Origin: Thermoanaerobaculia bacterium
GTDB taxonomy: Bacteria; Acidobacteriota; Thermoanaerobaculia; Multivoradales; Multivoraceae
Direction of reading: 5' to 3'
Length of the DNA: 64,000 nucleotides
Assembly: GCA_963666565.1 (NCBI GenBank)
Contig: OY762911.1
Coordinates: forward strand, 2,400,001-2,464,000
The notes under the pieces were generated by a model. It searched no databases and was not told the DNA's origin. It worked only from the letters and a program-made list of their open reading frames with translations. Shown here piece by piece: positions 30,410 to 47,500 of the stretch. Numbering within the stretch: the first letter of the stretch is position 1; every line of letters begins with the position of its first letter. The translations under genes and the position numbers were made by a program.

Positions 30410-30739
30410 CTACGCCAGCAGCAGCCGGTCCAGCGCCGTCGCGGCAGCCAACAAGGCGCCCACCACCAGCAGCATGCGCCAGGTCAGGTCCGCGCGGAGC
30501 TTCTCCATGTCGGCGCGAATCTCGCCGCGGAGTTCGCCCATCTCGGCGCGCAGGTCGCCGCGCAGCTCGCCCATCTCGGCGCGCAGGTCGCCGCGCAGTT
30601 CGCTCATCTCGGCGCGCAGTTCGGCGTGGTCCCGCGCGCGCTCGGCGCGCATCTCGCGCCGGATCGCTTCGAGCCGCACTGCTGCGTCCGATTCGGTCAA
30701 GAAAGAGGTGCTCCCGGTCTTCGATTCCGTTGCCGTCAT
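30410..30739 (-). CDS. Coiled-coil protein with 11-aa repeats and C-terminal TM (DUF1640-like)
   Basis: LRAEMGELRGD repeats (33-bp period) then a hydrophobic tail. Confidence 0.65.
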   Translation of the reverse strand: MTATESKTGSTSFLTESDAAVRLEAIRREMRAERARDHAELRAEMSELRGDLRAEMGELRGDLRAEMGELRGEIRADMEKLRADLTWRMLLVVGALLAAATALDRLLLA

Positions 30740-31341: not shown

Positions 31342-31728
31342 GTGAGGGCGCTGCTGGACACCCACGCGCTTCTCTGGTGGGTGGCGGACAGCGCGCGTCT
31401 CTCGGAGACCGCTCGCGGCCTGATTGCCGACGACTCGAACGAGATCCTGGTCAGTGCGGCCTCGGCCTGGGAGATCGCGACGAAGTACCGGCTGGGCAAG
31501 TTGCCGGGAGGCGAAACCGTGGCGGCCGATGTCGTAGGCAGCATCCGGGCACAGGGGTTCACGGAACTCCAGATAAGCGTCGCCGATGCCGAACGCGCCG
31601 GACGCTTGCCCGGGCCGCACCGGGACCCGTTCGACCGGATGCTCATCGCGCAAGCCCTGGCGCGGGACCTGCCGGTCGTGTCGGTGGACGCGATGTTCGA
31701 CCGCTACGCCGTCAACCGGGTTTGGTGA
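31342..31728 (+). CDS. vapC: PIN-domain toxin
   Basis: LLDTHALLW, SAWEI, HRDPFDRMLIAQA. Confidence 0.93.
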   Translation: MRALLDTHALLWWVADSARLSETARGLIADDSNEILVSAASAWEIATKYRLGKLPGGETVAADVVGSIRAQGFTELQISVADAERAGRLPGPHRDPFDRMLIAQALARDLPVVSVDAMFDRYAVNRVW

Positions 31729-31736
31729 GTGTCGGC

Positions 31737-31827
31737 CGGTTCATCCCCGCGTGTGCGGGGAAATGCGGGAGGGCAGAGAGGCAGCTTGTTCCGCGAGCGG
31801 ATCATGACCGTGCCGTTGCGGGGGCGG
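31737..31827 (-). CRISPR. Orphan type I-E-like repeat plus a highly degenerate second copy 61 bp away
   Basis: CGGTTCATCCCCGCGTGTGCGGGGAA at 31737; CGGATCAT...GCGGGG at 31798. Confidence 0.6.
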
Positions 31828-32165: not shown

Positions 32166-34032
32166 TAGACTCCTTGAACAAGGGGCGTCTTAACAGTTGA
32201 GTCAAGTTTGGTTCGGGGTGTCCGTGTCGATTCGGCGTGACGGAGGTCGGCCTCAGGCTGCGAGTCGCTGTCCTCGCCAGGCTCGTTGGACGTCGCGGTC
32301 GTAGTTGGCGACGGTTCTTCGTAGCCGGGCGTTGGCTTCCGGGTCGAGGGTGGCGGACATGACGGGGCCGAGCACTCGGGCGTGGGTCCGGTGGTAGGCG
32401 AACGCTACGCGCAGTCCCCAGTCGGTGATCCGGTAGCGGTGGGTGCGGGGGATCCGCTCGATGATTCCCCGCAGTCGCAGCCGGCGCAGGTCGTAGGTCA
32501 TGCGGGAAGGGCCGTAGCGTTCCGGCGGGAGTCCGCACAAAGCGGCGACCGCGGGCCGCAGATCGCGGTTGCGGAAGCCGTTGGGCAGGAGGCTGAAGCG
32601 CAGCAGGGCGGCGAAGAGACTCTGCACCCTGCGGTCTCCGAAGCGAAGCGCCGAAGCGCGCTGACCCGAGATGCACCGCGGACGGTGCAGATCGTCGAGC
32701 GTTTCGGCTCCGAGCAGACAGTCGTGGCTGAGAGTTTGGACGCCGAGCAGGCGTCGGTTGGCGGCGAAGCCGACCTTCTTGAGGTCATCGAGGTTTCTCA
32801 GCAAACGACCGACATCGAAGTCGTAGGTGTCGTTGATCACCGTCTCGGTGCGCAGGGCGCGCCCTTCCTTGTGGTACTGCTTGATGCGCGAGTGCTTGTA
32901 GTCGACGTGCAGCGACGGGGAGACCCCGTCGGTAATGACGCGGGTGCGATACCGCGAGGGGGTGCGTCGCGTGACGCGGCGCTTGAAGATCAACTGCACG
33001 TGCTCGGGCCGTCCCATGTCGAGGTGCTCGCGCAGCACCTCCTCGAAGAAGACCCGACCCTGCACCGGGCGGTCGAAGACCTGGGTCAGGGCGAATTCGG
33101 CCTGGAGGATCGAGACGGCGTAGCGGATGCCCCGCCGCCGGTCGCCGGCGGAGAACGGATGCGGCAGGCGAGCCAGCCACTTGCGCAGCAGCGCGTCGAT
33201 CTTGTCCGCGCCGAACCCGTCGGCGAGCCGCTGCATCGCCTCCGGGTCCGAGCAGCGCAGGATGCCGTTGTCCAGCGACTCGTACTCGATCCCCCGCTTG
33301 CTCAACTGGCGCTTGAGGTACTCGTGTCCGTTGATGCACAGCTTGGCGTTGTAGGGGAAGTACGAGCAGAACTTCAGGAAGAACGGACCGAAGTCGTCGT
33401 CGAACACGTAGAAGTAGTACTGGTTGACCATCGCCGTCGAGTGCACCAGCCACGGATAGCCCGCGTCGGTCGCCGAGTCGTAACGACGCTCGGTACGCAG
33501 CACCCGAGCCTTCTCCTGCGCCTTGCCGACGTACAGCACCCCCTCGCCTCCATGCCACCGGCGAAGGTACTCGCGGGTGCGGTCGTCCTTGCGCTCGCCG
33601 CGCCGAAACGGGACGATGTCGGTCCGATGCTGCCGCGCGTAGCCCTTGATCGCGGCCACGAACCGCCTCGTCATCGGCGCCATCAGCACCGACGACGGCA
33701 CCTGCGCGCCCCGCACCTCCCGGAAGAACCAGGCCGCGCCCGCGCCACGCTGAAGCACCGGTACGTAGACGTTGAGGTACATCCGATCGACGCACTCCAG
33801 CGTCAACGACACATGCTCCTCAAGAACCTCGGCTGCCGTGCGTGCTACCTTCATCAGCGGACTCCGGTCGATGGGCTTCTCACCGGCCAGCTTAAGGCCA
33901 CCTTCGCCGCAGAGCGACAATACGGCGGATTCACTCCGCAGCTGAAGCAGCGACCGGAGTCCGATCGACGCCAAGGCCGACGCCGACCACCGCCGCGAAC
34001 ATGCTCGTCGGTCTGAGGCGAAGCCTCGTTAG
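32166..34032 (-). mobile_element. TIR-less insertion element of about 1.86 kb inserted in the higB stop codon
   Basis: CTA at both junctions (32166-32168, 34030-34032); removal restores DYH-TAG, RBS and higA; hairpins near both ends. Confidence 0.8.
32253..33854 (-). CDS. Putative transposase of an uncharacterised family with C-terminal winged HTH
   Basis: Only large ORF in the element; IKQYHKEGRALRTETVIN; YDLRRLRLRGIIERIPRTHRY wHTH. Confidence 0.7.
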   Translation of the reverse strand: MKVARTAAEVLEEHVSLTLECVDRMYLNVYVPVLQRGAGAAWFFREVRGAQVPSSVLMAPMTRRFVAAIKGYARQHRTDIVPFRRGERKDDRTREYLRRWHGGEGVLYVGKAQEKARVLRTERRYDSATDAGYPWLVHSTAMVNQYYFYVFDDDFGPFFLKFCSYFPYNAKLCINGHEYLKRQLSKRGIEYESLDNGILRCSDPEAMQRLADGFGADKIDALLRKWLARLPHPFSAGDRRRGIRYAVSILQAEFALTQVFDRPVQGRVFFEEVLREHLDMGRPEHVQLIFKRRVTRRTPSRYRTRVITDGVSPSLHVDYKHSRIKQYHKEGRALRTETVINDTYDFDVGRLLRNLDDLKKVGFAANRRLLGVQTLSHDCLLGAETLDDLHRPRCISGQRASALRFGDRRVQSLFAALLRFSLLPNGFRNRDLRPAVAALCGLPPERYGPSRMTYDLRRLRLRGIIERIPRTHRYRITDWGLRVAFAYHRTHARVLGPVMSATLDPEANARLRRTVANYDRDVQRAWRGQRLAA

Positions 34033-34415: not shown

Positions 34416-37005
34416 GGTCTATCCCCGCGGGTGCGGGGGAACCCGCCCGATGGACACCGGCAAGCTGGCGGAGTCGGGTCTATCCCCGCGGGTGCGGGGG
34501 AACCAGGCCGGCCAGCCGATCGGCCACGTTCGCCGGGGGTCTATCCCCGCGGGTGCGGGGGAACCGAGTTCTTCCGGCGCGTGCTGGACGAGGGACTGGG
34601 TCTATCCCCGCGGGTGCGGGGGAACCGTGTACGCGCCGATCACGGGCTCGGAGCCGTCGGGTCTATCCCCGCGGGTGCGGGGGAACCAACCCCGGCGGCG
34701 CCGTCGCCGACGGCAAGGAGGGTCTATCCCCGCGGGTGCGGGGGAACCCCCGCGGCCGTCAGCGCCGTGCCGACCCGCTTGGGTCTATCCCCGCGGGTGC
34801 GGGGGAACCGGCCCGGCCGACGGCCTCTGGTGGGCCGACGTGGGTCTATCCCCGCGGGTGCGGGGGAACCGCAGGATGCGATCAACGCCTGCCGCAAGGC
34901 GGAGGTCTATCCCCGCGGGTGCGGGGGAACCGGCGATCGTTCTGTGCGCCGGAGATCGTCAGCAGGTCTATCCCCGCGGGTGCGGGGGAACCCGCGGATG
35001 GGACGGGCGGTCCGATGCCGTGCTGGGTCTATCCCCGCGGGTGCGGGGGAACCGGACGCCCCGATCGACTACGTCCGGGAGGATCGGGTCTATCCCCGCG
35101 GGTGCGGGGGAACCCTCCCGCAAGTTCCAGAAGGCAGGGGTACGGGGGGTCTATCCCCGCGGGTGCGGGGGAACCGAGGAGCGGCCCGACCTCCCGCGAC
35201 AGCCACTCGGTCTATCCCCGCGGGTGCGGGGGAACCACCGTCGACCTCGAGGGCATCCTGACCATCGAGGGTCTATCCCCGCGGGTGCGGGGGAACCGAG
35301 CGCCCTCACTTCCTCGCCTCCACGGCGTGAGGTCTATCCCCGCGGGTGCGGGGGAACCTACGAGCAGGAGCATGAGAACCGCACGATCGAGGGTCTATCC
35401 CCGCGGGTGCGGGGGAACCGTGGCCTTGGCCAGGTCGCGGGCGAGGTCGTGGGGTCTATCCCCGCGGGTGCGGGGGAACCGCCCCCCTGGCGGAGCCTCA
35501 GGCCCCAGATCAGGGTCTATCCCCGCGGGTGCGGGGGAACCGCCCCGGAACCGATCGGCCGCGTCCTCGCCCTGGGTCTATCCCCGCGGGTGCGGGGGAA
35601 CCGTCTACCAGGGCGCGAACGACGTGACGGACGAGGGTCTATCCCCGCGGGTGCGGGGGAACCCAGGTCGGCGAGGCCATCGACACGGGCGAACGGGGTC
35701 TATCCCCGCGGGTGCGGGGGAACCTGGCGACGACCGACTCCAGCGCGAACATCCCGAGGTCTATCCCCGCGGGTGCGGGGGAACCGAGCGCGCCCAGGGC
35801 GACGCGCCGACGGTCACGGGTCTATCCCCGCGGGTGCGGGGGAACCCTCCTCGCCCCGGAACACGCCGCCGGAGAAGGCGGTCTATCCCCGCGGGTGCGG
35901 GGGAACCACCTTGCACCGGCAGCCCCAGCCGTTCGGAGGGGGTCTATCCCCGCGGGTGCGGGGGAACCTCGCCGGCCTTGATGGCGGCGGCAAGCGCCTT
36001 GGGTCTATCCCCGCGGGTGCGGGGGAACCACGCGGCACCGATGAAGCGAGGAGGAACGATGAGGTCTATCCCCGCGGGTGCGGGGGAACCCGCCGGGCCG
36101 CCATCCTCCGCGACGTACTCGAGGGTCTATCCCCGCGGGTGCGGGGGAACCGGCAGCGACTGGGCGGCGACGGACCGGCTGTTGGGTCTATCCCCGCGGG
36201 TGCGGGGGAACCCGCCTGTTCCTCCACCTCCACGTCGTAGGTCGAGGTCTATCCCCGCGGGTGCGGGGGAACCCAGTCCGTCTGGCCGGCCTGATCCGGC
36301 GGCAGGGGTCTATCCCCGCGGGTGCGGGGGAACCACCAGGGAGCTCGCGTAGCTGGAGAACAGATCGGGTCTATCCCCGCGGGTGCGGGGGAACCCTCGG
36401 CGGGAGCGGCCGGCGTCTCGGACATGGCGGTCTATCCCCGCGGGTGCGGGGGAACCGTGACCTGCCGTTTCCGGCGTCGCAGGGCAACGGGTCTATCCCC
36501 GCGGGTGCGGGGGAACCTAGGCGGGACATACATACATACAACCGCACGGCGGTCTATCCCCGCGGGTGCGGGGGAACCCATCAAAAGGTAAGAGTCAAAG
36601 GATCCAGCAAGGGTCTATCCCCGCGGGTGCGGGGGAACCTGGAGCGATCAGCACGTCGCGTGGTTGCTCGGGGGTCTATCCCCGCGGGTGCGGGGGAACC
36701 GGTGTCGCATGTGGGTCTGGACATCGATCGCGGGGTCTATCCCCGCGGGTGCGGGGGAACCCTGAACGACGCGACTCGCGCGCCGGAGGAGCGGGGTCTA
36801 TCCCCGCGGGTGCGGGGGAACCATGTTCCGGCAGGGAGAGGATCAGGCGCGGAACGGTCTATCCCCGCGGGTGCGGGGGAACCAGCCGCGCCGATTGGTG
36901 GATCGAGCAGGAAGAGGGTCTATCCCCGCGGGTGCGGGGGAACCCTGGTCTTGATCGTCGCAGCGTCGCAAGCGTTGGGTCTATCCCCGCGGGTGCGGGG
37001 GAACC
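34416..37005 (-). CRISPR. Type I-E CRISPR array, 43 repeats and 42 spacers
   Basis: Repeat GGTCTATCCCCGCGGGTGCGGGGGAACC (+ strand), exact 61-bp period; orientation inferred from cas2 and leader. Confidence 0.99.
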
Positions 37006-37121
37006 TCTGGCCATTTTGGCCGATTCGCCGCGAAGAGTCGAGGCTCTGGCCAGTGCATGGAAGACGAAACCGTAGTTCCGTGTCTCGCTTCAGTTGTCAA
37101 AGAGCGGGAACTCCGGCGCGA
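37006..37121 (-). promoter_or_regulatory. CRISPR leader
   Basis: Non-coding region between cas2 and first repeat; contains CTCTTTGACAA on the minus strand. Confidence 0.75.
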
Positions 37122-39107: not shown

Positions 39108-39817
39108 TCCGCGCTCCGTGAGGACGCGATGTAGCCCGTGCAGACCTGCCTTGCTCCGCCGTGAAGTCCGCTGACCCAGTTTCGCTCGTCGGTCACGCTC
39201 GCAACACGGTCGGCGCCAGCCGTCCCTTCCGCCGCCGGCCAAGTCGCAAGCAGGCCGTTCGAGTTCGGGAGCGCGACTGCTTCCAACGCCTCTCGTGCCG
39301 CGGGCGCGTCCACCCACCCCTCGAAGATAGGCGACGAAGGCAGACAGCTCTTGCGCCCTATGAACAACGGCCGTGCCGGCTGCTCAAGGGCAGCCTGCAG
39401 CGCATCAAGCGTGGGATGAGCCTCTGCGGGTTCCAGCTTCAGCACAACGCTCATTCGCAAGTCGGCGTGATACTCGCGCCAACGTTGGTGTCTGCCCTCG
39501 TAGGTCTTCGCCCCGCCGTGTCTGCCTGCGGGGGTGCCGCGAGTGGTCCACGCACGGTCGTTCTTGCCCAGTTGCGCTGTCTGGTAGTCCGTCATGCGAT
39601 TCAAGCCGATGTCCCTCTCCCATACGGCACCGAAGACGACTCGCTCCTGCAGCGCCTGGTGCTCGGCCCGCATCGACCGCGACCATCCCAGAGCGTTCGC
39701 GAGCAGGCCGGTCAACATGGACTGGGCCGGGACATCTCGAATCACGCCATGCGCGTCGACGGTCTCCCCGCCGAACGCGCCTATGGGGGCACGAAGACGC
39801 AGGTGCATCCAGCGCAT
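39104..39817 (-). CDS. cas5e: Cas5e
   Basis: LTGLLANALG, DYQTA, REYHAD, LFIGRKSC. Confidence 0.93.
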   Translation of the reverse strand: MRWMHLRLRAPIGAFGGETVDAHGVIRDVPAQSMLTGLLANALGWSRSMRAEHQALQERVVFGAVWERDIGLNRMTDYQTAQLGKNDRAWTTRGTPAGRHGGAKTYEGRHQRWREYHADLRMSVVLKLEPAEAHPTLDALQAALEQPARPLFIGRKSCLPSSPIFEGWVDAPAAREALEAVALPNSNGLLATWPAAEGTAGADRVASVTDERNWVSGLHGGARQVCTGYIASSRSAE

Positions 39818-40947
39818 CAGGCCCTGCCGTCCCTCACGACGGTGCTGGCCCACGAAGCGAGCTCCCGCAACGTCGACGACCGCTCCGCTCCCGGTACTTG
39901 GGTCTCTTCGAGACCGATGAACCGGCGTTCTTCGCCGGTCTCGTAAAGGGCGTCGACGTTGTTCAGGAACTGGGCAGCCTTCTCTTGGGCGACCAGCCTG
40001 TTGGGTCTGCAGGGCTCCCGGTACGCCTCGGCGAGGCTCCGCGGCTGCCGGTCGCCAGCCTCTACCAGCATCCAGCTCGCGTAGCCGTAGGGTGCTGTCG
40101 GTCCCAACTTGGCGCCGGGCGTCACCGTGGCGATGAGATGAATCAGCCTGCGCGCCACCTCGCCGGCCATCTCGGCGTCACCGCCCAGGTTGCGGACAAG
40201 ACCGTTTCGATCCAGGACCACGTAGCCGTAGAACAGCCCCGAAGTCAGCTCGGTCTCTCCGATGTGATCGGCGCCTGAGTCGTCCTCCGCTCCTCGGAGA
40301 TCGTCGACGACGGTGAAGTAGTCACTCTCGCTTTCTTCCCGGTGAACGGTGAAGGCGTGTGCGACATGGACAGCGGCGTCGATGTTCGCCTCCACGTCCG
40401 ATGTGACCATGCGTCCGAACAGGGCGGCGGCGATGCCGCCGGGGAGGGAGCAATTCTCTCGGAGCGCCTTCATGTTGGCCTTTGAGTTCTTCTGCCAGCT
40501 TTCCGCCGCCTCTGCCGCTGCCTTGACGTCGGTTCCGTGTTCCTGCGCGATCTTGAGTGCTTCGGCTGCCAGGTACTCGATCTCGGGTTCGCCGAGCAAC
40601 AGGGGCTGGCGACTCTCGTCGCCTTTTTCGCCGTACACGGCCTTCTGGAATGCGGTCGAGATGGCCTTGACGACCTCTGCGTCATGGTCGGCATCGCGGA
40701 GGGGTTGAATCACTTGGCGGCTCACCGTCTCGCGGGACCGAACGCTCGCAGCAGCGCCGTCGATCCGTTGGAGCGCGTGTGGACTCTCGGTCACCCGCCA
40801 ATGGCGCTTGAGGCACTGAGACGAAACGCGCGTGCGCATGGCGTCGCCATAGAGAATCCTCTTGGCAAGGCCGGAGTCGTCGCGGTTCAACAGCACGGCC
40901 GAGTAGCCGTGCAGGCTGTGAATCTGGAGAAAGCGGGCGTCAGGCAT
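39817..40947 (-). CDS. cas7e: Cas7 (Cse4)
   Basis: LNRDDSG, RVSSQCLKRHWR, ALFGRM, DYFTVVDDL. Confidence 0.96.
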   Translation of the reverse strand: MPDARFLQIHSLHGYSAVLLNRDDSGLAKRILYGDAMRTRVSSQCLKRHWRVTESPHALQRIDGAAASVRSRETVSRQVIQPLRDADHDAEVVKAISTAFQKAVYGEKGDESRQPLLLGEPEIEYLAAEALKIAQEHGTDVKAAAEAAESWQKNSKANMKALRENCSLPGGIAAALFGRMVTSDVEANIDAAVHVAHAFTVHREESESDYFTVVDDLRGAEDDSGADHIGETELTSGLFYGYVVLDRNGLVRNLGGDAEMAGEVARRLIHLIATVTPGAKLGPTAPYGYASWMLVEAGDRQPRSLAEAYREPCRPNRLVAQEKAAQFLNNVDALYETGEERRFIGLEETQVPGAERSSTLRELASWASTVVRDGRA

Positions 40948-41515
40948 CGGTATGCGTCTCCTTGGCTCCTGGGTTTAGCGTGGCTTCAAGATCGGCGCGG
41001 TAGTACTCGCGGGCGATCCGTCGACATGCCCGCCGGGCTGCGGGGGTGTTGTCGCCGGCCAGCACGAACTGGCCTAGCCCGAGCAGATTGAAGCGCTTGA
41101 AGTCGGTGCGAGCCAGTCGCCGGCAAATGCGGACCACGAGGTCGGACCGCTGGTCCGACGGTGCTGCGAGTAGCCGCGCAAGGCGTAGTTCCGACACGCC
41201 GGCCTGGAAGAGGGCCTTGCCCATGGACAACTCCTGTTGGTGCGCGGAGGCATTGTCCTTTCTCCGCCCCTTCGGTGTCAGGATCGCGACGGCCTGAATC
41301 ATCGCCGCCCATCTCTGTTCGTCGCCATCGGCACTGTAGCGGGTCAGTAGCCTCCAGAAGGCCGCCGCGCCGGCACCGCTCAGGGGGTCGTGGCGAAGAG
41401 CGGCGGCCGACCCCGGGTCGAGACGCGCGATCTCCGCCGCCAAACTCGGGATCACGTTCCCGAGATTCCCCGAACCTTGCGCCGTCCTCGCTGTTTCGGT
41501 GTCGCTACTCGACAT
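40940..41515 (-). CDS. cse2: Cas11 (Cse2)
   Basis: Small helical protein between cas8e and cas7; SELRLARLL, IAREYY. Confidence 0.88.
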   Translation of the reverse strand: MSSSDTETARTAQGSGNLGNVIPSLAAEIARLDPGSAAALRHDPLSGAGAAAFWRLLTRYSADGDEQRWAAMIQAVAILTPKGRRKDNASAHQQELSMGKALFQAGVSELRLARLLAAPSDQRSDLVVRICRRLARTDFKRFNLLGLGQFVLAGDNTPAARRACRRIAREYYRADLEATLNPGAKETHTDA

Positions 41516-43088
41516 TGGCAGGCTCCCGTGCGGTGAAGATCTCCGGCTGATCGGCGAACACGCTCCTGTTGCCGCGGAGACTTCCATAGAAGGCGCTAAA
41601 GGCACGCGCTCGCGCCCGGTGTCGCCGGATCGCTGGGCAGGGCACAGATTCGACAGCGTCTACGAGGAGCGCGTCCGCGGCGGCCACCATGCCCCGGGCG
41701 AAGTTCGCGCGCTCCCCGTGGGTGCCGGCTTGCCGGCTGGCGGCGAACCGCTTCTCGACCGCATCGAAGAACCGCGAGTCGACCCACGCGTCCAGCCGGC
41801 GGGCGTACGGCCTGGCGAACGTTCGGTCGTTCTTGCTCAGGTCGCCCAGCATCTTGCCGCCACTTGCGGCGACAGCTACTCCGAGCCGCAATGCGCGCGA
41901 GACCTCTGCGATCTCCTCAAGAAGATCGCCGCTAATGGCCGCCAGTTCGTCGCGTTCTTCTTTCCGGCCGAAGGCTGCGGCGACTCCCGGGGCGAAGACG
42001 ATGTCCTTCCGCTCGTGGTAGCCATCGGTCTTGCCTTGGCCGCCTGCCATGCCTCGGGCCACTACTCGCCACCGTTCCTTGCTAGCTGCGGAGACGATCA
42101 TCGCTGGCGGAAGATCGTAGGCGGCCTTATCGAAGAGGAGCCTGTTCAGGCGGTCGTACCGGAATCCGGCGCTAGACAGCGACAGCGCTTTGGCATCGCC
42201 CGTGCTGACGGGCGTCCAGAAGTCGCCGACGTTGCCGCGGGCGGCCTTGGCGGCGACCCGGCTCGTCTTTGACCCAGCCGTCTTCGCCACGATTCGCCGA
42301 TTCTCGACACGCAGGCGCACGCGCCGACAGATCTCGATGAAGTAGGGGTCCAGGTCGCCCAGGTCGAGCGACGTTTCGCCGTCCCACGGGACGGTCCAGA
42401 GAAGAGCCGTTCCGTTCTCCGGGCGGTAGTAGTCCGGGAGGCGGTTCAGTAGTTGCGGGCGATCCTCCAGCATCTGCTGGATGTCGTGAAGGAGGTGTGC
42501 GCCGAAACCACCGCCAGCAGGCGCGAGCCCAAGGCAGGGTCGAGCCGAGAACCCGCCGTTCATGCGGGCGATCCCGTAGTTGCCGGCGCCGAGAAATCCA
42601 GCCATCGTCTGCAGGTCGATCAAGGCAAACACCCAGTCGTCCGGTGCATTCGCCCGGGCGACGTCCTGCTTGACGTCGTGGTTCTTGGACGTCACGAGGA
42701 GATCGAGGTCATCGGGCGTGGCAACTCGCCGGCGATACTGGCTGAGCGTGTCGCCCGCCGGGCACTGCATGAAGGCTGGCTTTGCAGGGTCGTTGACGAC
42801 CAACTGCCACGGTTCGTCGCCGTCGAACTCCGGCGTCAGCCTGCGTATTACCGAGCGCCACTCGGCTGCGGCGCTGGGAAGAGCCGTCGCCTCAGCCCGT
42901 TGGACGGCGAGTGTGCCGAGCTGGGCGACAAAGGCGTGCCAGGCGTGTCTTTGGTGGGGCCGCAAGGCCGGGAACGCGGCGACTGTATCGGCCGATGCCT
43001 TCTCGAAGACGTCCGGCAGCGACATCGCCTCGGAGTGGTCGTGGGCGAGACGAACTCGAATTAGTGGATCAGTGAGGAGGTTGTACAT
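41505..43088 (-). CDS. cse1: Cas8e (Cse1)
   Basis: YNLLTDPLI, AFMQ, GAGNYGIARMNGG, EICRRVRL. Confidence 0.92.
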   Translation of the reverse strand: MYNLLTDPLIRVRLAHDHSEAMSLPDVFEKASADTVAAFPALRPHQRHAWHAFVAQLGTLAVQRAEATALPSAAAEWRSVIRRLTPEFDGDEPWQLVVNDPAKPAFMQCPAGDTLSQYRRRVATPDDLDLLVTSKNHDVKQDVARANAPDDWVFALIDLQTMAGFLGAGNYGIARMNGGFSARPCLGLAPAGGGFGAHLLHDIQQMLEDRPQLLNRLPDYYRPENGTALLWTVPWDGETSLDLGDLDPYFIEICRRVRLRVENRRIVAKTAGSKTSRVAAKAARGNVGDFWTPVSTGDAKALSLSSAGFRYDRLNRLLFDKAAYDLPPAMIVSAASKERWRVVARGMAGGQGKTDGYHERKDIVFAPGVAAAFGRKEERDELAAISGDLLEEIAEVSRALRLGVAVAASGGKMLGDLSKNDRTFARPYARRLDAWVDSRFFDAVEKRFAASRQAGTHGERANFARGMVAAADALLVDAVESVPCPAIRRHRARARAFSAFYGSLRGNRSVFADQPEIFTAREPANVE

Positions 43089-43100
43089 GGTTGTGGCCTC

Positions 43101-43190
43101 GCGCTCTCCCCGCTATGGCGGGGTCGCGATTTCATCAAGCGCTTCCGTTGCTCCGCGTACGGGTCAATCTCCGATGAGGTCGGAGGGGTT
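43101..43190 (-). ncRNA. Degenerate mini-CRISPR (crRNA-like regulatory RNA, CreA/CreR-like)
   Basis: Two pseudo-repeats starting at 43101 and 43162 (61-bp period) keep a 6-bp stem; spacer matches 43537-43558. Confidence 0.85.
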
Positions 43191-43257
43191 GGCGCGATTC
43201 TTGGCTGCTACGATTCGGAGCATCGTCGATGAGCAACCAAGTCGGTGATGGTCGTAG

Positions 43258-43330
43258 CGGTCCCGGCCGGAGTCGAAACCGGCATCTCGCCTTTGTTCTT
43301 CGGCGCGTCTTGACCTTAGACGACAGGACC
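43258..43330 (-). ncRNA. tRNA-like cloverleaf with aberrant anticodon and T loops
   Basis: Acceptor GGTCCTG/CGGGACC, D stem GTCT/AGAC with GG in loop, stem CGCC/GGCG, T arm GCCGG-TTTCGACT-CCGGC; ends G-CTA, not CCA. Confidence 0.7.
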
Positions 43331-43513
43331 GCTACGGGTTGGCCCGCCGGGGTGTCTCCCCGGCGGGCGCTGTTGTTCAGGGGACGACGCGCGAAGACCA
43401 ACGGGTCGGTACTTCGGCAGCGAGGGCTCGGTGTAGCGAGTGGCAGTTCAAGGGGATTCCGCATGTCGTCCTTCCTCAGAGCGGTCATTGCGCCCGGTCA
43501 GGGCGCGTCGCCA

Positions 43514-43561
43514 ACCATAGCACAAGACAGACTGTCGCGCCTCCGTTGCTCCTCGTACGCT
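43514..43561 (-). promoter_or_regulatory. Predicted promoter with mini-CRISPR target site
   Basis: Extended -10 TGcTATGGT (43522-43514); protospacer 43558-43537 preceded by AGC. Confidence 0.65.
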
Positions 43562-43690
43562 ACAGATGAGGACTCGATGCAGCGTTCAGCCGTCGGCGGC
43601 AAGTTGACGACTGCCCGGGCGAGCTTACGGCTCGCCCGTTTTGAGCGAGCGGTACTCCGCCACGCCCTCGCCCCACCGCGTCGGTCTGTC

Positions 43691-46306
43691 TCACCAAGCA
43701 GTGACTGAAGAAGCCGAGGATTCCTCAGGTCGGACTCCGGTCCGATCGTAGGTCAGTCGAGCGTCGCCGACCGTCAGAACGAGGGTGCTGGCCGCGGTAG
43801 GTTCGGCTCGTGCGGCCTCGATGTCCTCCTTCCTGGGCAGGCCGCGCCGGAACATGTGAGCCGGGAGGTTGAAGGTACGGACCTCACTGCCGAACGGTCC
43901 GGCTAGCGGGGACGGGAGTTCGATTCGCGGGCCGTCTTCGCCCAGTCGGGTTCGGACTTTGGAGTCCAGGTCCGCGAAGACGAGGTCCCCGTCGAAGGGC
44001 TCTTCCCGCGTCAGCGCGTGGTTCCTCGCCGCGACGGCCTCGGCGGAGTTTCTTCCGACCACCTTGCTCAGGTGAGAGAGCCAGTCTTCGCCGAGCGTCT
44101 CAGCCGACTCGCGCAGCACCTGTGGGTGAGTCCCGCGCTCGACCAGCGTCCTGTTCATCTCCGGGACGGTCCAGGCCGGGTGGTCCTCGATGAGCCTCCG
44201 CGTTGCCTCGATTCCGACGAGGTTCGTGTAGATCCCGCCGCGGTCCGAAACGCCGAGCCCGTGTTGCAGGAGCGAGCCGTCGAGCCCTGCCGCCAGCCCC
44301 GAATCCGGCACGAGAACGAGGCAGCGGGCATCCTTGAACGCTGCCGGGCGTTCGTTCGGTGCGTGGCGATGCAGTCGCCCGAGCCGCTGCAGCAGGACGT
44401 CTACGGGGCAGATGTCCGTGATCAGGTAGTCGGCGTCGATGTCGAGCGACTGCTCCAGCGTCTGCGTGCCGATGACGATTGTGCCGCCCGGTGGACGACT
44501 CTCCTTCCCCAATTCCCGTTCGACGGCGGCGTCCAGCAGTCTTCGGTCCTCGGCGGCGAACCGGCTGTGGTGTAGCGCCGGTCCGCCTGCGACCGCAAGC
44601 GCCAGATCGCTGCCGCCCTGGTCCACCAGCGCGGCGAAGACGGCCCGTGCGCTGTCCACGGTGTTGCGAACGACGAGCACCTTGGCATCGTTCTGCGCCG
44701 CACGGAGCGCTTTGCGGGCGATTGCTCCTGGTTCGCCCAGGAACGCCGCCGTGGACATTGCGACCGGCTTGGACGTGCCCGTCGTCCGGATAGGGGTCAC
44801 CCGGAACTCGCCGCGGCCGTCCGCGAGCGTCATGGCGGGGTAGGGGACGGCCTCGGCATCGCTTGGCGATGGCGTGGCGTAGCGGTTGGTCTTCGAGACG
44901 AACTTGGAACTCGCCGCCGAACCCAGGGTGGCCGACATGAGCAGGGCGTGGCCTCCCAGCGTGAGGTGTCCCCGCAGGACGCCGCGCAGTACCTGCGTCA
45001 TGTAGCCGTCGCTGGCGTGGACTTCGTCCACAACGAGCAGGCTGCCGGCAAGGCCAGCCGCCCGGAAGTGCGCCCACTTCACTTGCAGACCTGCGAGGAG
45101 CGCCTGGTCGACCGTCCCGACCGCCGCTGGGGCCGTCAAGTACTTGCGGGCACTCTCGGCCGACCAACGGGCAAGCCGCTTCGCTTCGTCGGGCTCGTCC
45201 TCCCAGTAGACCTCGAACTTCTCTGCTCGGCGTCCTTCGGAATCTCCGGCCCGGAGGTAGCCCGGCACCGCCAAAACCGTCTCTGCGTTGGCAGTCGACG
45301 GGAAGAGCCGGTCCAGCGCCCGATGGACGCGCGCGTGCAGTTGTTTCGCTGCGGACCGAGTCGGAACGGCGAAGTAGAGACCGTCTACGACTCCTGCGCG
45401 CCACAGGGACGCGAATCGCAAGATGGCCGCTTCCGTCTTGCCGGACCCGGTCTCGCTCTCCAGAATCAGGAGAGGGCTGTCGAGCGGCGCCGAAGCCACG
45501 GCGGTCTGCAGAGGCCGCGGCTCGGCGTAGTTGAACAACCTCCTCACATCGGCGACCGGTGCGCCCTTCGGCCAAGCAGACCGGGCGAACCCCTTGCTCG
45601 CGACTGTCCCTGCGGCGATGCGGCGAGCGCGCTCGATGTAGGACGGGTCCGGGTCCGGCTCGTGCTTGAAGGCATCTTCGTCCGAGCCCAATTGATCGGC
45701 AATGGCGACGACGCCGGCGAAGAGGTGGGCCAACGCCGGCACGTCGGGGACCGGAGGTCCAGACTTGAAGGAGTCGGGGAACCACGCCCGTCCCCGCTCG
45801 TAGAGCAGCTTCGCGGTGGCTCGTGGTTCGTAGCCTCCGAAGGGCTGCCACAGCTCGGCCGGGCCTCTTCCCGTGCGCGATGGCCGCCGAGCCGGTCGGC
45901 CGTGATGGGCGAGCGCCGCGTAGAGAAGAGGCTCGACGCCGCCGCCCCACTCGTCGGCGATGCGATGGAGTCCCAGGAGTTCGCAGAGTCCGGGCTGCGC
46001 GAAGCTCAGCAGCGCCTCTCCGATGTGTCCGGCTGGCCGCGGGCCTCGCCGAACCGCTCCGCCGGATCGCGGCACCTTGAACTGAAAGCCGGCGTTGAGC
46101 TTGCCGAAATCGTGCAGGTAGGCGAGGTACGTCAGTCGGGCGGCGAGCGTGTCGTCGAGAACCGGCGCGCCCGCGGCTCGGGCGAAGCGGGCGCGTAGCA
46201 CGGGTTCGCCGATCAGTGCTTCAAAGCAGGCCGCTACGTCGGCACAGTGATGCTCCAGCCGATGGAAGCGTCCCGTTGCTTCGTCGAACTTCCCCCATGC
46301 GTCCAC
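43691..46306 (-). CDS. cas3: Cas3 HD nuclease-helicase
   Basis: HDFGK, ETGSGKTE, DEVH, SAT, HSRF, QRLGRLHRH. Confidence 0.97.
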   Translation of the reverse strand: MDAWGKFDEATGRFHRLEHHCADVAACFEALIGEPVLRARFARAAGAPVLDDTLAARLTYLAYLHDFGKLNAGFQFKVPRSGGAVRRGPRPAGHIGEALLSFAQPGLCELLGLHRIADEWGGGVEPLLYAALAHHGRPARRPSRTGRGPAELWQPFGGYEPRATAKLLYERGRAWFPDSFKSGPPVPDVPALAHLFAGVVAIADQLGSDEDAFKHEPDPDPSYIERARRIAAGTVASKGFARSAWPKGAPVADVRRLFNYAEPRPLQTAVASAPLDSPLLILESETGSGKTEAAILRFASLWRAGVVDGLYFAVPTRSAAKQLHARVHRALDRLFPSTANAETVLAVPGYLRAGDSEGRRAEKFEVYWEDEPDEAKRLARWSAESARKYLTAPAAVGTVDQALLAGLQVKWAHFRAAGLAGSLLVVDEVHASDGYMTQVLRGVLRGHLTLGGHALLMSATLGSAASSKFVSKTNRYATPSPSDAEAVPYPAMTLADGRGEFRVTPIRTTGTSKPVAMSTAAFLGEPGAIARKALRAAQNDAKVLVVRNTVDSARAVFAALVDQGGSDLALAVAGGPALHHSRFAAEDRRLLDAAVERELGKESRPPGGTIVIGTQTLEQSLDIDADYLITDICPVDVLLQRLGRLHRHAPNERPAAFKDARCLVLVPDSGLAAGLDGSLLQHGLGVSDRGGIYTNLVGIEATRRLIEDHPAWTVPEMNRTLVERGTHPQVLRESAETLGEDWLSHLSKVVGRNSAEAVAARNHALTREEPFDGDLVFADLDSKVRTRLGEDGPRIELPSPLAGPFGSEVRTFNLPAHMFRRGLPRKEDIEAARAEPTAASTLVLTVGDARLTYDRTGVRPEESSASSVTAW

Positions 46307-46383: not shown

Positions 46384-46887
46384 ATGGACCCCTTCGTGGC
46401 GATCGACTTCGAGATAGCCAACGCACGCCACGACAGCGCCTGCGCGGTCGGGCTTGCCGCTTGCAGCGGCGGCCACGTGGTGCAGTCGCGCAGCTATCTC
46501 ATCCGGCCTCCCGGCAGGCGGTTCACTTTCACTGGAGTCCACGGCCTGAGTTGGGACGATGTGCGCGAGGCGCCGACGTTCGCCGACCTCTGGCCGACGC
46601 TGCGGGAGTGGCTCGCTCCGGCGCGGTTCGTTGCCGCTCACAACGCGAAGTTCGACCGCAGGGTGCTGCAGGCCGGCTGCGCTCGCAACGGTTTGCGGGC
46701 GCCACGGAAGCGCTTCGTCTGCACCGTGGAACTGGCCTGGGCCCAATGGGATGTCTCGTCGGCCAGATTGCCCGACGTCTGCCGTCGACTGGACATCCCT
46801 CTCCGGCACCACGACGCGGGCTCGGACGCTCTGGCTTGCGCTCGGATTGTCCTTGCCGCGCAGGCGGCTGGCTGGAGGCTCCGGTAG
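46384..46887 (+). CDS. DEDDh 3'-5' exonuclease (DnaQ-like)
   Basis: IDFE, AHNAKFD, HHDAGSDA. Confidence 0.9.
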   Translation: MDPFVAIDFEIANARHDSACAVGLAACSGGHVVQSRSYLIRPPGRRFTFTGVHGLSWDDVREAPTFADLWPTLREWLAPARFVAAHNAKFDRRVLQAGCARNGLRAPRKRFVCTVELAWAQWDVSSARLPDVCRRLDIPLRHHDAGSDALACARIVLAAQAAGWRLR

Positions 46888-46925
46888 ACCGAGGAGGCGA
46901 TCGATCATGGTACCGTTGTACGGCC

Positions 46926-47132
46926 ATGACTCAAGTGACCCTCTCGCCCAAGTACCAGGTCGTCATCCCGCTCGAGATCCGCACCGCTCTGCGACTCGAG
47001 CCAGGCCAGAAGATCCAGGCGATTCGCGTCGGCCGCTGCATCGAACTGGTCCCGGTCAAGCCGATGAGGGAGTACCGGGGATTCGCGAAGGGCATCGACA
47101 CCGCGGTCGCTCGCGAAGCCGATCGACTGTGA
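46926..47132 (+). CDS. AbrB/MazE-family antitoxin
   Basis: LSPKYQVVIPLEIR...L.PGQ. Confidence 0.9.
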   Translation: MTQVTLSPKYQVVIPLEIRTALRLEPGQKIQAIRVGRCIELVPVKPMREYRGFAKGIDTAVAREADRL

Positions 47133-47500
47133 ACGTCGTCGACTCGTCGGCGTGGATCGAGTACTTCGCCGATTCCGAGCGCGCGGATCTGTACGAGGCG
47201 CCCATCCTGGACACGGGGGAGCTTCTCGTGCCGGCGATCTGCCTCTACGAGGTGTTCAGGGTCATGTCCAGGCAGCGCTCCGAAGTCGAAGCCCTCGAGG
47301 CCGTTGCGGCCATGCGGCAAGGCAGGGTCGTCGAGTTCACGGCCGATCTGGCGGTTCTCGCCGCAAGGCTCTCCCTCGAGCACTCGCTGCCGATGGCCGA
47401 CGCCTCGATCCTCGCAACCGCCTACTCCGAGGAGGCGGAGCTGTGGACCCAGGACGCGGACTTCGAGGGGCTGCCGGGCGTACGCTACTTCCCCAGGTAG
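47129..47500 (+). CDS. vapC: PIN-domain toxin
   Basis: VVDSSAWIEY, LYEV, MADASILATA, WTQDADF; GTGA overlap with the antitoxin. Confidence 0.92.
   Translation: MNVVDSSAWIEYFADSERADLYEAPILDTGELLVPAICLYEVFRVMSRQRSEVEALEAVAAMRQGRVVEFTADLAVLAARLSLEHSLPMADASILATAYSEEAELWTQDADFEGLPGVRYFPR

Follow-up and report, generated by a model that had tools for sequence, protein, structure and literature searches.

Positions 43253-43336 on the minus strand of a 64,000-nucleotide (nt) stretch of contig OY762911.1 from a Thermoanaerobaculia bacterium (hereafter the window) hold a gene for a transfer RNA (tRNA)-like RNA that descends from tRNA-Glu. Since it is flanked by cas3 and cas8e and a CRISPR array lies nearby, the element stands inside the 600-base-pair (bp) cas3-cas8e gap of a type I-E locus. 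Downstream of it is a mini-CRISPR whose CRISPR RNA (crRNA)-like guide matches a site at a putative promoter, P1, upstream of it, and what we describe is a circuit of the CreR/CreA type with a tRNA-derived RNA in the regulated slot. In a clade of acidobacterial I-E systems the pseudo-tRNA gene would be a fixed part of a CRISPR self-regulation module. By analogy with the CreT RNA toxins we tentatively read it as a tRNA-derived RNA cargo that is repressed by Cascade and released when Cascade is lost or inhibited. In our judgement this reading falls somewhat short of an even chance, and whatever the readings weighed below leave over is kept for roles that we have not thought of.

An earlier note, made from the letters of the window alone, had drawn the segment as a tRNA mimic, and the sequence that it quoted is indeed the minus strand of 43253-43336. 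Its four-stem cloverleaf was recovered by RNAfold as both the minimum free energy and the centroid structure, with an acceptor helix of 13 bp (7 + 6), a D stem of 4 bp, an anticodon stem of 4 bp with a 10-nt loop, a variable region of 4 nt and a T stem of 5 bp with an 8-nt loop.

43253-43336, minus strand: tRNA-like RNA, with the core cloverleaf at 43259-43330 and a helix extension in which 43331-43336 is paired with 43253-43258 (6 bp).

The fold energy is -46.3 kcal/mol against -32.5 +/- 3.6 for shuffled sequences (z = -3.87; one of 200 shuffles was equally good), and folding the full leader (475 nt between the putative transcription start and the cas8e start codon) returns the same cloverleaf. 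The 6-bp extension of the acceptor helix that the note had described is there, but the base drawn as discriminator is paired within it, so that acceptor stem and extension meet without an unpaired base.

Four arms, U8, A14, the GG of the D loop and a TTC-type T loop are all present, as in a tRNA cloverleaf. Decoding traits are lacking in the window copy: as had been remarked, the anticodon loop has 10 nt instead of seven, is purine-rich and has no U33, the T loop has 8 nt and no 3' CCA is encoded; the anticodon loop is moreover without a readable anticodon, and an unpaired discriminator is missing. A low or pseudogene score had been foreseen, and ARAGORN found no tRNA in the 64-kb window. Rfam gave nothing at the gathering score, and relaxing the cut-off to E <= 10 for the 1 kb around the element still brought no tRNA match. 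At a lowered threshold ARAGORN reads the copies of the genus as a 4-base 'gaac' or as Ser; its 85% threshold proved too noisy for use, with several spurious calls per 6.5 kb. A protein-coding reading was rejected, since the 117- and 159-amino-acid open reading frames (ORFs) over the element have no Pfam match and show indels and frame differences between genomes.

Conservation was followed in 12 loci from about 11 genomes, all metagenome-assembled. Labels are used where loci have to be told apart: G000 is the genome of the window, other G numbers are genomes, and L numbers are loci fetched around cas8e or the element. Among the 42 species genomes sampled from the genus ten have a Cas8e homolog, and seven of these ten I-E loci carry the tRNA-like element together with the mini-CRISPR. 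In the seven sequences the drawn structure is 89% paired, against 30-47% in slid controls, and five pairs have changed on both sides. A covariance model built from them was run on 80 Cas8e loci of other genomes and gave ten matches upstream of cas8e, six of which are the genus loci and four new: L072 and L076 (Vicinamibacterales), L073 (Terriglobia) and L075 (Acidobacteria). The genome of L073 has a second I-E locus, L228 (G557:C33), where the whole module of target, hairpin, tgc tRNA and mini-CRISPR lies at 1460-1880.

When 11 sequences are taken together, the four core helices are 93, 86, 100 and 96% paired (slid controls 29-47%), nine pairs have changed on both sides, a number reached by one of 500 shuffles, and the covariation score is 0.205 against 0.135 (0 of 500 shuffles). 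Because the loci are few and related, these shuffle statistics overstate independence. The covariation supports the suggestion of the earlier note that shape rather than decoding is under selection. It also has a direction, since the core contains 14 G.U cells, which speak for the cas-sense strand because read from its complement they no longer pair; only four C.A cells, all at position 13-22, favour the other strand. The 6-bp extension of the acceptor helix is specific to the genus.

Ancestry was read from a comparison with the tRNA set of the host genome (4.79 Mb, 70% G+C; 58 tRNA and transfer-messenger RNA genes by ARAGORN), which the note had proposed. The nearest genes are tRNA-Glu(CTC) and tRNA-Glu(TTC), identical at 50 and 51 of 72 positions, and the D arm and acceptor are of the tRNA-Glu type. 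ARAGORN does call a tRNA, 71-74 nt long, in the corresponding slot of L072, L073, L076, L075 and L228; its anticodon is tgc in four loci and agc in L075. Of the four loci tested against the Rfam tRNA family RF00005 (L072, L073, L076 and L075), three score 56-60 bits where the threshold is 29 (L072, L076 and L073), and at E <= 0.1 Rfam gave no tRNA match for L075, the window copy or an unlinked paralog described below. Aligned with the tRNA-Glu of their relatives, these cas-linked tRNAs share its acceptor stem, D arm, T arm and 4-nt variable region. They lack CCA, in which all eight genuine tRNAs aligned with them end. Their anticodon loop is one base from that of tRNA-Glu, and as this change is U35 to G35 it has become the loop of tRNA-Ala(UGC). 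Position 3:70 is C3:G70; the mark of tRNA-Ala is G3:U70. The idea that the cas-linked gene is the only tRNA-Ala of its genome was dropped, ordinary tRNA-Ala homologs being found elsewhere in four of four genomes. By its sequence the window element is the most derived member of a series that leads from a callable tRNA to a non-decoding mimic.

More than shape appears to be conserved. The anticodon loop ...TTGCAA is kept in four of the five distant loci despite different closing stems, and in L228 the GG of the D loop and the C of the T loop are lost while the anticodon loop is intact. The 10-nt loop of the genus has a motif of its own (conserved A2, G4, A5, C7 and A9), shared with the paralog.

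The same comparisons bear on another proposal of the earlier note, that the element is the relic of an integration (att) site, which would make it a piece copied from a host tRNA and left by an integrase. Integration often targets tRNA genes. Here the whole cloverleaf is conserved and not a 3' half, at about 70% identity to any host tRNA; a BLAST search against its own genome returns only the element itself below E = 0.06 and no second copy of a tRNA end; and the element lies between two cas genes of a single operon region, with no integrase among the flanking genes examined. Since the best host tRNA agrees at only 50-51 of 72 positions and BLAST finds the element alone, an att duplicate is ruled out, and to a relic of this kind we attach next to no weight.

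The circuit around the gene is made of the following parts.

43162-43190, minus strand: pseudo-repeat 1, with a hairpin unlike that of the repeat and with the 7-nt 5'-handle part of the CRISPR repeat kept.
43129-43161, minus strand: pseudo-spacer (crRNA-like guide), 33 nt.
43101-43128, minus strand: pseudo-repeat 2, with the hairpin stem of the true repeat and a degenerate 3' part.
43537-43562, minus strand: guide target (protospacer 43558-43537) overlapping a -10-like TAnnnT box (43562-43557), putative P1.
43691-46306, minus strand: cas3, HD nuclease and helicase (Pfam Cas3_HD 1.4e-27, Cas3-like_C_2 1.3e-29).
41505-43088, minus strand: cas8e/cse1 (Pfam CRISPR_Cse1), starting 12 nt past pseudo-repeat 2.

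A guide just downstream of the element had been assumed by the earlier note, and the pseudo-spacer is found there. In a script search of the whole genome its best match is 43558-43537, about 130 nt past the cas3 stop codon, where the first 22 nt contain mismatches at positions 6 and 18 only. The runner-up, at G000:C1:3005182 (minus strand), is identical to the P1 target in its first 14 nt and has three effective mismatches in 24 nt; chance alone would give about 0.1-0.2 sites as good, and it could be a second target or a chance match. Guide and target were compared by eye in seven loci (G000, G062, L072, L076, L073, L075 and L228). They vary in step between genomes, and 18 of the 25 mismatches in the first 18 positions fall at 6, 12 or 18, the positions left unpaired in type I complexes, as stated for I-F1 spacers (PMC10120712).

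In loci with a recognisable promoter the start of the target is either within the -10 box or directly behind it. By eye P1 reads TTGAC(A/G), 18-19 nt, TAGTGT in G009, G004, G013, G036 and G010, and TTGACA, 17 nt, TAGCTT in L072; in L073 it reads TTGACA, 17 nt, TAAGAT and is the only P1 called by the promoter tool. The triplets flanking the target are AGC, AGT, AAT, AAC or ATT. The protospacer adjacent motif (PAM) of the E. coli I-E system is AAG according to two reports (bioRxiv 10.1101/2023.03.10.532045; PMC10120712).

This is the signature of a CreA or CreR RNA, for which the available portions of the published accounts describe degenerate repeats that keep the 5' handle and the hairpin (PMC8501985; bioRxiv 10.1101/2023.03.10.532045). 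In the window the first repeat keeps the handle and the second the hairpin, and the pseudo-spacer partly matches a nearby promoter with identity in the seed, as it does by eye in six other loci. About 19% of I-E loci are reported to contain such mini-arrays, most often in the cas3-cas8 interval (PMC10120712). By gene order the element lies downstream of the guide-targeted promoter, as a CreT does, in 12 of 12 loci. The other mark of CreT, a mini-ORF with consecutive minor codons and a stem-loop, is not seen directly before the window element.

From this anatomy and from the published CreR/CreA systems we infer that Cascade with the crRNA-like guide binds P1 and represses it. Because the gene lies between P1 and the mini-CRISPR, the tRNA-like RNA would be low while Cascade works and would surge once Cascade is missing, titrated away or inhibited by an anti-CRISPR. 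On this view the RNA itself would be the cargo under regulation, with a function like that of the CreT RNA toxins: stable and L-shaped, it would neither decode nor accept an amino acid, and in excess it would slow growth by occupying the tRNA-handling machinery. Candidates for the machinery so occupied are glutamyl-tRNA synthetase, the ribosomal A site with RelA, RNase P and the CCA enzyme. An antisense RNA may be a second brake, with an opposite-strand terminator 5' of the tRNA and -10-like boxes 3' of it.

Further parts lie in the leader and behind the tRNA.

43462-43477, minus strand: Shine-Dalgarno (SD)-like stretch and ATG (43464-43462) in the leader, read from the sequence.
43342-43368: all-GC hairpin of 11 bp, 11 nt upstream of the tRNA-like core.
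43201-43241, minus strand: imperfect, conserved hairpin between the tRNA-like RNA and the mini-CRISPR, from folding and alignment.

The GC hairpin has no U tract on the cas strand and is followed by a T-rich run on the opposite strand. The tool used for terminators finds it terminator-like on the plus strand, opposite to the cas genes, in six of the six loci scanned, and compensatory changes in its stem are visible in the genus alignment. By eye all 12 loci have it next to the tRNA or tRNA-like gene on the 5' side; 5-11 nt separate the two in the window and in the five distant loci, about 35 nt in G062. For want of a U tract, transcription on the cas strand must pass it. The hairpin at 43201-43241 holds a TAnnnT box on the opposite strand, and its inner stem has gone from C-G to G-C in G013 and G036 (by eye). 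Opposite-strand boxes between the tRNA and pseudo-repeat 1 read TATAAT in L075, L073 and L228, TACAAT in L072 and L076 and TACGAT or TAGGAT in the genus; with the terminator they suggest, at the level of sequence, an antisense RNA across the tRNA. An SD and start codon occur at the matching place of the leader in five to six of the seven genus loci. The reading frame that follows is not conserved: it differs in G033 and G062, and codon changes between G009 and G004 are mostly non-synonymous.

The order of target, leader, hairpin and tRNA-like gene is the same in 12 of 12 loci, and to all appearances that of the whole module is always promoter, guide target, leader, GC hairpin, tRNA or tRNA-like gene, mini-CRISPR and cas8e. 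This constancy matters for the view that the element is a captured tRNA-Glu gene that drifts without function and merely travels with the locus. The gene has been lost in the close relatives G027, G010 and L144, its loops and helix lengths differ strongly between lineages, the arms of L075 and L228 are eroded (L075 being unmatched by Rfam at E 0.1), and in G036 its 5' half has been triplicated in tandem, all of which would fit decay. Decay would not lead one to expect stems kept by two-sided changes while the flanking leader is unalignable between lineages, a position that is fixed relative to the hairpin, the promoter with its target and the mini-CRISPR across loci whose Cas8e are 63-80% identical, or a genus form that has been duplicated to an unlinked locus and conserved there in two genomes. 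We regard functionless drift as improbable. The triplicated unit in G036 (L024 ~1195-1290, homologous to window 43300-43370) is 28 nt long, comprises the 5' strand of the acceptor and the D arm, and follows the GC hairpin.

Loci with the mini-CRISPR and without the tRNA place the gene further. A regular-expression search found the full mini-CRISPR signature directly before cas8e in 16 of 80 related loci, and pseudo-repeat 2 only in about 14 more. G010 and six other loci have the same mini-CRISPR and no tRNA; in G010 promoter, target and mini-CRISPR are present and only the tRNA-like element is absent. Since such loci exist, neither the I-E system nor the guide requires the tRNA, which from the comparison of loci seems to behave like an exchangeable cargo, as do CreT and CreP. 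G027 has a gap of 20 nt and no element, and L144, whose Cas8e is 73% identical, retains only a remnant guide directly after cas3. G015 (L031 1320-1410), with a Cas8e of 40% identity, has two repeat-like units in reversed orientation upstream of cas8e, followed by a promoter-like TTGACT / TACGGT pair, and so a mini-array of another layout.

In six of the tRNA-less loci (L074, L080, L084, L086, L096 and L105) the interval from the promoter and target to pseudo-repeat 1 is occupied by a small ORF that is preceded by an SD, has about 45-60 codons and runs into the repeat.

L080:2254-2412: small ORF.
L084:2230-2415: small ORF.
L105:2272-2421: small ORF.
L096:2272-2412: small ORF.
L074:2284-2430: small ORF.
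L086: small ORF.

Pfam was run on five of the six (all but L086) and found no family in four and a sub-threshold DUF4926 in one (E = 0.026). Between L080 and L086 seven of 18 codon differences are synonymous (by eye). These ORFs could encode CRISPR-repressed small proteins.

The main rival reading, to which we give a little less weight, has another function for the tRNA-like structure: it could be a cis-acting punctuation or stability module, a substrate of RNase P (and a 3'-end nuclease) in the cas8e leader, whose product would be the leader RNA or the operon mRNA. A cut at its 5' side would part a leader RNA with SD, start codon and hairpin-protected 3' end from the mini-CRISPR and cas8e while transcription continues; left uncut, the structure could stabilise the transcript. 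What is common to all 12 loci is in keeping with this, namely the scaffold of acceptor, T arm and D arm and not the decoding loop. So are the strong hairpin beside the tRNA 5' end without a U tract on the cas strand, the lack of an encoded CCA, and the SD-led start or mini-ORF in the leader and directly before the paralog. Precedents, as given in the accessible parts of the reports, are the engineered Haloferax 't-elements', from which crRNA is freed by RNase P and tRNase Z (PMC4326828), and mascRNA, which is processed by RNase P and defines the 3' end of MALAT1 (PMC11693755). The earlier note had offered an RNase P/Z processing signal that frees the guide as one of the possible roles. Yet the guide has Cas6e-type hairpins of its own, 65-110 nt from the tRNA, so that the tRNA cannot define the guide's ends, and the same mini-CRISPR occurs in loci without a tRNA. 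The 13-bp acceptor helix of the genus has neither an unpaired discriminator nor a 3' tail, and a continuous helix without a free 3' tail should be a poor substrate for RNase P. In the host genome no RNase Z equivalog exceeds the cut-off (67 bits against 293); two genes of the CCA-enzyme/poly(A)-polymerase family are present. Nor would processing need the ...TTGCAA loop or the 10-nt motif to be conserved.

Several points weigh against a Cascade-repressed toxic cargo as well. Transcription from P1 is presumed: the promoter scan calls none in the window or in L072, the P1 of L075 and of L076 miss its criteria, and the -35 is unrecognisable in G000 and G033, the window showing only a TAnnnT box. 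A search for sequencing data that contain the stretch gave four entries from one study, none of them of RNA. No separate promoter was found for the mini-CRISPR, so that guide, tRNA-like RNA and cas8e may be one self-repressed transcript, which may fit plain CreR autoregulation and be awkward for a tightly silenced toxin. The antisense -10 boxes were recognised by eye only, with no -35, and the promoter tool called no promoter there. The repression of P1 by Cascade is likewise argued from analogy, and the harm done by the tRNA-like RNA is presumed. The decoding end has changed completely between lineages, from a 7-nt Ala-type loop to a 10-nt purine-rich one and from a 7-bp to a 13-bp acceptor, and no single molecular target accounts for both forms. 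Finally, the element is rare and dispensable, being absent from three of the ten I-E loci of the genus and found beyond the genus in four of 80 genome loci; among 80 metagenome Cas8e loci the model had no match, and for ARAGORN genes the count was 0 of 60.

The Cascade-repressed cargo can be given a more specific shape, which we consider decidedly speculative: a CRISPR-guarded 'rogue tRNA', an unchargeable tRNA-Glu derivative with an Ala anticodon or a remodelled loop, held under a double lock of Cascade and antisense RNA, that would arrest growth when Cascade is deleted or blocked by an anti-CRISPR. It would jam the machinery that handles tRNAs, for instance through the trapping of glutamyl-tRNA synthetase, or through uncharged entry into A sites at Ala codons that sets off RelA, and would be a toxin that imitates a tRNA instead of sequestering one.

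The genome of the window has a second tRNA-like RNA at G000:C1:1240276-1240368 on the minus strand (L062:8277-8369), which scores 48 bits with the covariance model; its homolog in G030 scores 43 bits. This paralog has the 13-bp acceptor helix and the 10-nt loop motif of the genus element. It is away from cas genes, its neighbours being a pyridoxal phosphate enzyme, a Sel1-repeat protein and a HicB-like protein. G000 and G030 share a conserved block of SD, start codon, 8-codon mini-ORF, 9 nt, tRNA-like RNA and hairpin, and the third codon of the mini-ORF is AGA in G000 and ATA in G030. AGA and AUA are the minor codons in the two CreT toxins that have been characterised, both of which depend on a stable structure behind the mini-ORF (PMC8501985). 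With two sequences this likeness to the anatomy of CreT is only a lead. The earlier note had mentioned neither this second copy, nor the CRISPR context with its putative Cascade-targeted promoter upstream, nor the near-canonical relatives with an Ala anticodon.

Among known systems the nearest is CreTA, a type VIII RNA toxin-antitoxin of type I loci (I-B in Haloarcula and Halobacterium, I-F in Acinetobacter). As far as the consulted portions of these sources go, the likeness lies in a two-repeat degenerate mini-CRISPR between cas genes, a pseudo-spacer that partly matches the adjacent promoter, a small RNA downstream and the theme of interfering with tRNA supply. The CreT RNAs described there consist of a mini-ORF with consecutive minor codons and a stem-loop and sequester a tRNA, whereas the cargo described here is itself tRNA-shaped. 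It belongs moreover to a I-E system of Acidobacteriota, its guide lies downstream of the cargo and abuts cas8e, and its toxicity is a proposal only. CreR is a crRNA-like RNA that regulates cas genes and was shown in Salmonella I-E, in I-B and in V-A systems; according to the available part of the account, its authors use the name only until a coupled toxin is found (bioRxiv 10.1101/2023.03.10.532045). CreR and the mini-arrays of Shmakov et al. lie in the cas3-cas8 gap of I-E and have a target at the cas8e promoter, from which Cascade autorepression follows; the mini-CRISPR and target of the window agree with this picture. They differ in that those accounts, in the parts available, mention no tRNA or tRNA-like gene in the stretch from target to guide and speak of tRNA only with regard to CreT. 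We found no publication that joins CreTA with 'tRNA-like' or describes a tRNA or tRNA-like gene in the cas3-cas8e gap; the supplementary locus lists of the CreR and mini-array papers lay outside this search and may hold such cases.

Other tRNA-shaped RNAs are more remote. With tRNA-Glu (RF00005) the element shares acceptor stem, D arm, 4-nt variable region and T arm; the window copy departs from it in its 10-nt loop, 8-nt T loop, 13-bp helix and lack of CCA, and the near-canonical homologs in the Ala-type anticodon on a Glu body. Three families of tRNA mimics from bacteria (skipping-rope, DUF2693-FD and salivarius-1) are, from what the source gives of them, unrelated motifs. Two of the three we take to be Rfam families, and so far as they are in Rfam they were unmatched in a local Rfam scan at E <= 10. 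mascRNA with MALAT1 and the Haloferax t-elements are similar, in what the sources' available parts describe, in that a non-decoding tRNA shape sits in a longer transcript beside a protective structure, in the engineered cases beside a guide. Those examples are eukaryotic or engineered, and in the present locus the guide comes with Cas6e hairpins of its own, and simple processing by RNase P sits poorly with the extended helix. Non-standard tRNAs of the same phylum are the acidobacterial allo-tRNAs (Mukai et al. 2017), which the accessible part of the paper describes as often near toxin-antitoxin genes and proposes as suppressors or regulatory RNAs, some variants having killed E. coli (PMC5389517). 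Their acceptor/T arms are 8/4 or 9/3 and their variable arm is long, where the element has 7/5 (13/5) and 4 nt, and that part of the paper makes no mention of CRISPR (PMC5389517).

Guides for the self-repression of Cascade (CreR) or for the repression of toxins (CreTA, CrePA) are a recent subject, and most I-E examples have no known cargo. Should the tRNA-like RNA be a toxin or a signal, tRNA mimicry would be a new way for CRISPR systems to become indispensable or to sense anti-CRISPRs, and would supply a compact, transferable kill-switch part. Should it be a processing module, it would be a natural counterpart of the engineered tRNA-guide arrays of genome editing. In either case the series from a callable tRNA to a non-decoding mimic could serve for studying how tRNA genes are recruited.

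The wider distribution of the element is narrow in the genomes searched. A covariance search of 151 genomes of the order gave strong matches only in the genus and in the one paralog family, 25 of the 26 other loci retrieved being ordinary tRNAs (Glu, Thr, Cys and Phe). The hairpin pattern was found nowhere in 401 genomes of the phylum, and when hairpin and tRNA together were searched by BLAST in 121 genomes from the order to which L072 belongs, only the genome of the query came back. An origin from phages was rejected after BLAST against 50,697 phage records, in which, of the two queries (the window element and that of L072), one had three chance matches to the GC hairpin and the other none.

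The neighbourhood of the locus includes the following further features.

46559-47500, plus strand: PIN-domain ORF of 313 amino acids, with PIN at residues 193-304.
40940-41605: cse2, downstream of cas8e.
39817-40947: cas7, downstream of cse2.
34416-37010, minus strand: CRISPR array with a period of 61 nt, 28-nt repeats and 33-nt spacers.

VapC toxins often cut the anticodon loops of tRNAs, and with a PIN domain encoded beyond cas3 the earlier note had thought of the element as a substrate or decoy for a neighbouring VapC-like toxin. The association does not hold up between genomes: the PIN part is near the cas locus in only one of the five other element-bearing genomes (G013), lies more than 500 kb away in G009, G033 and G062 and was not found at threshold in G004. 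The element travels instead with cas8e and the mini-CRISPR, and we consider a decoy role very unlikely. The ORF at 46559-47500 looks like two genes; its N-terminal part of about 110 residues, which matches no Pfam family, is next to cas3 in all five other genomes.

About 2-2.7 kb past the far end of the array, lone sequences like the CRISPR repeat occur at window positions 31724-31763 and 32441-32463 and may be an orphan repeat or mini-array. A 33-nt tandem repeat of about four to five copies lies within a long ORF at 30485-30649.

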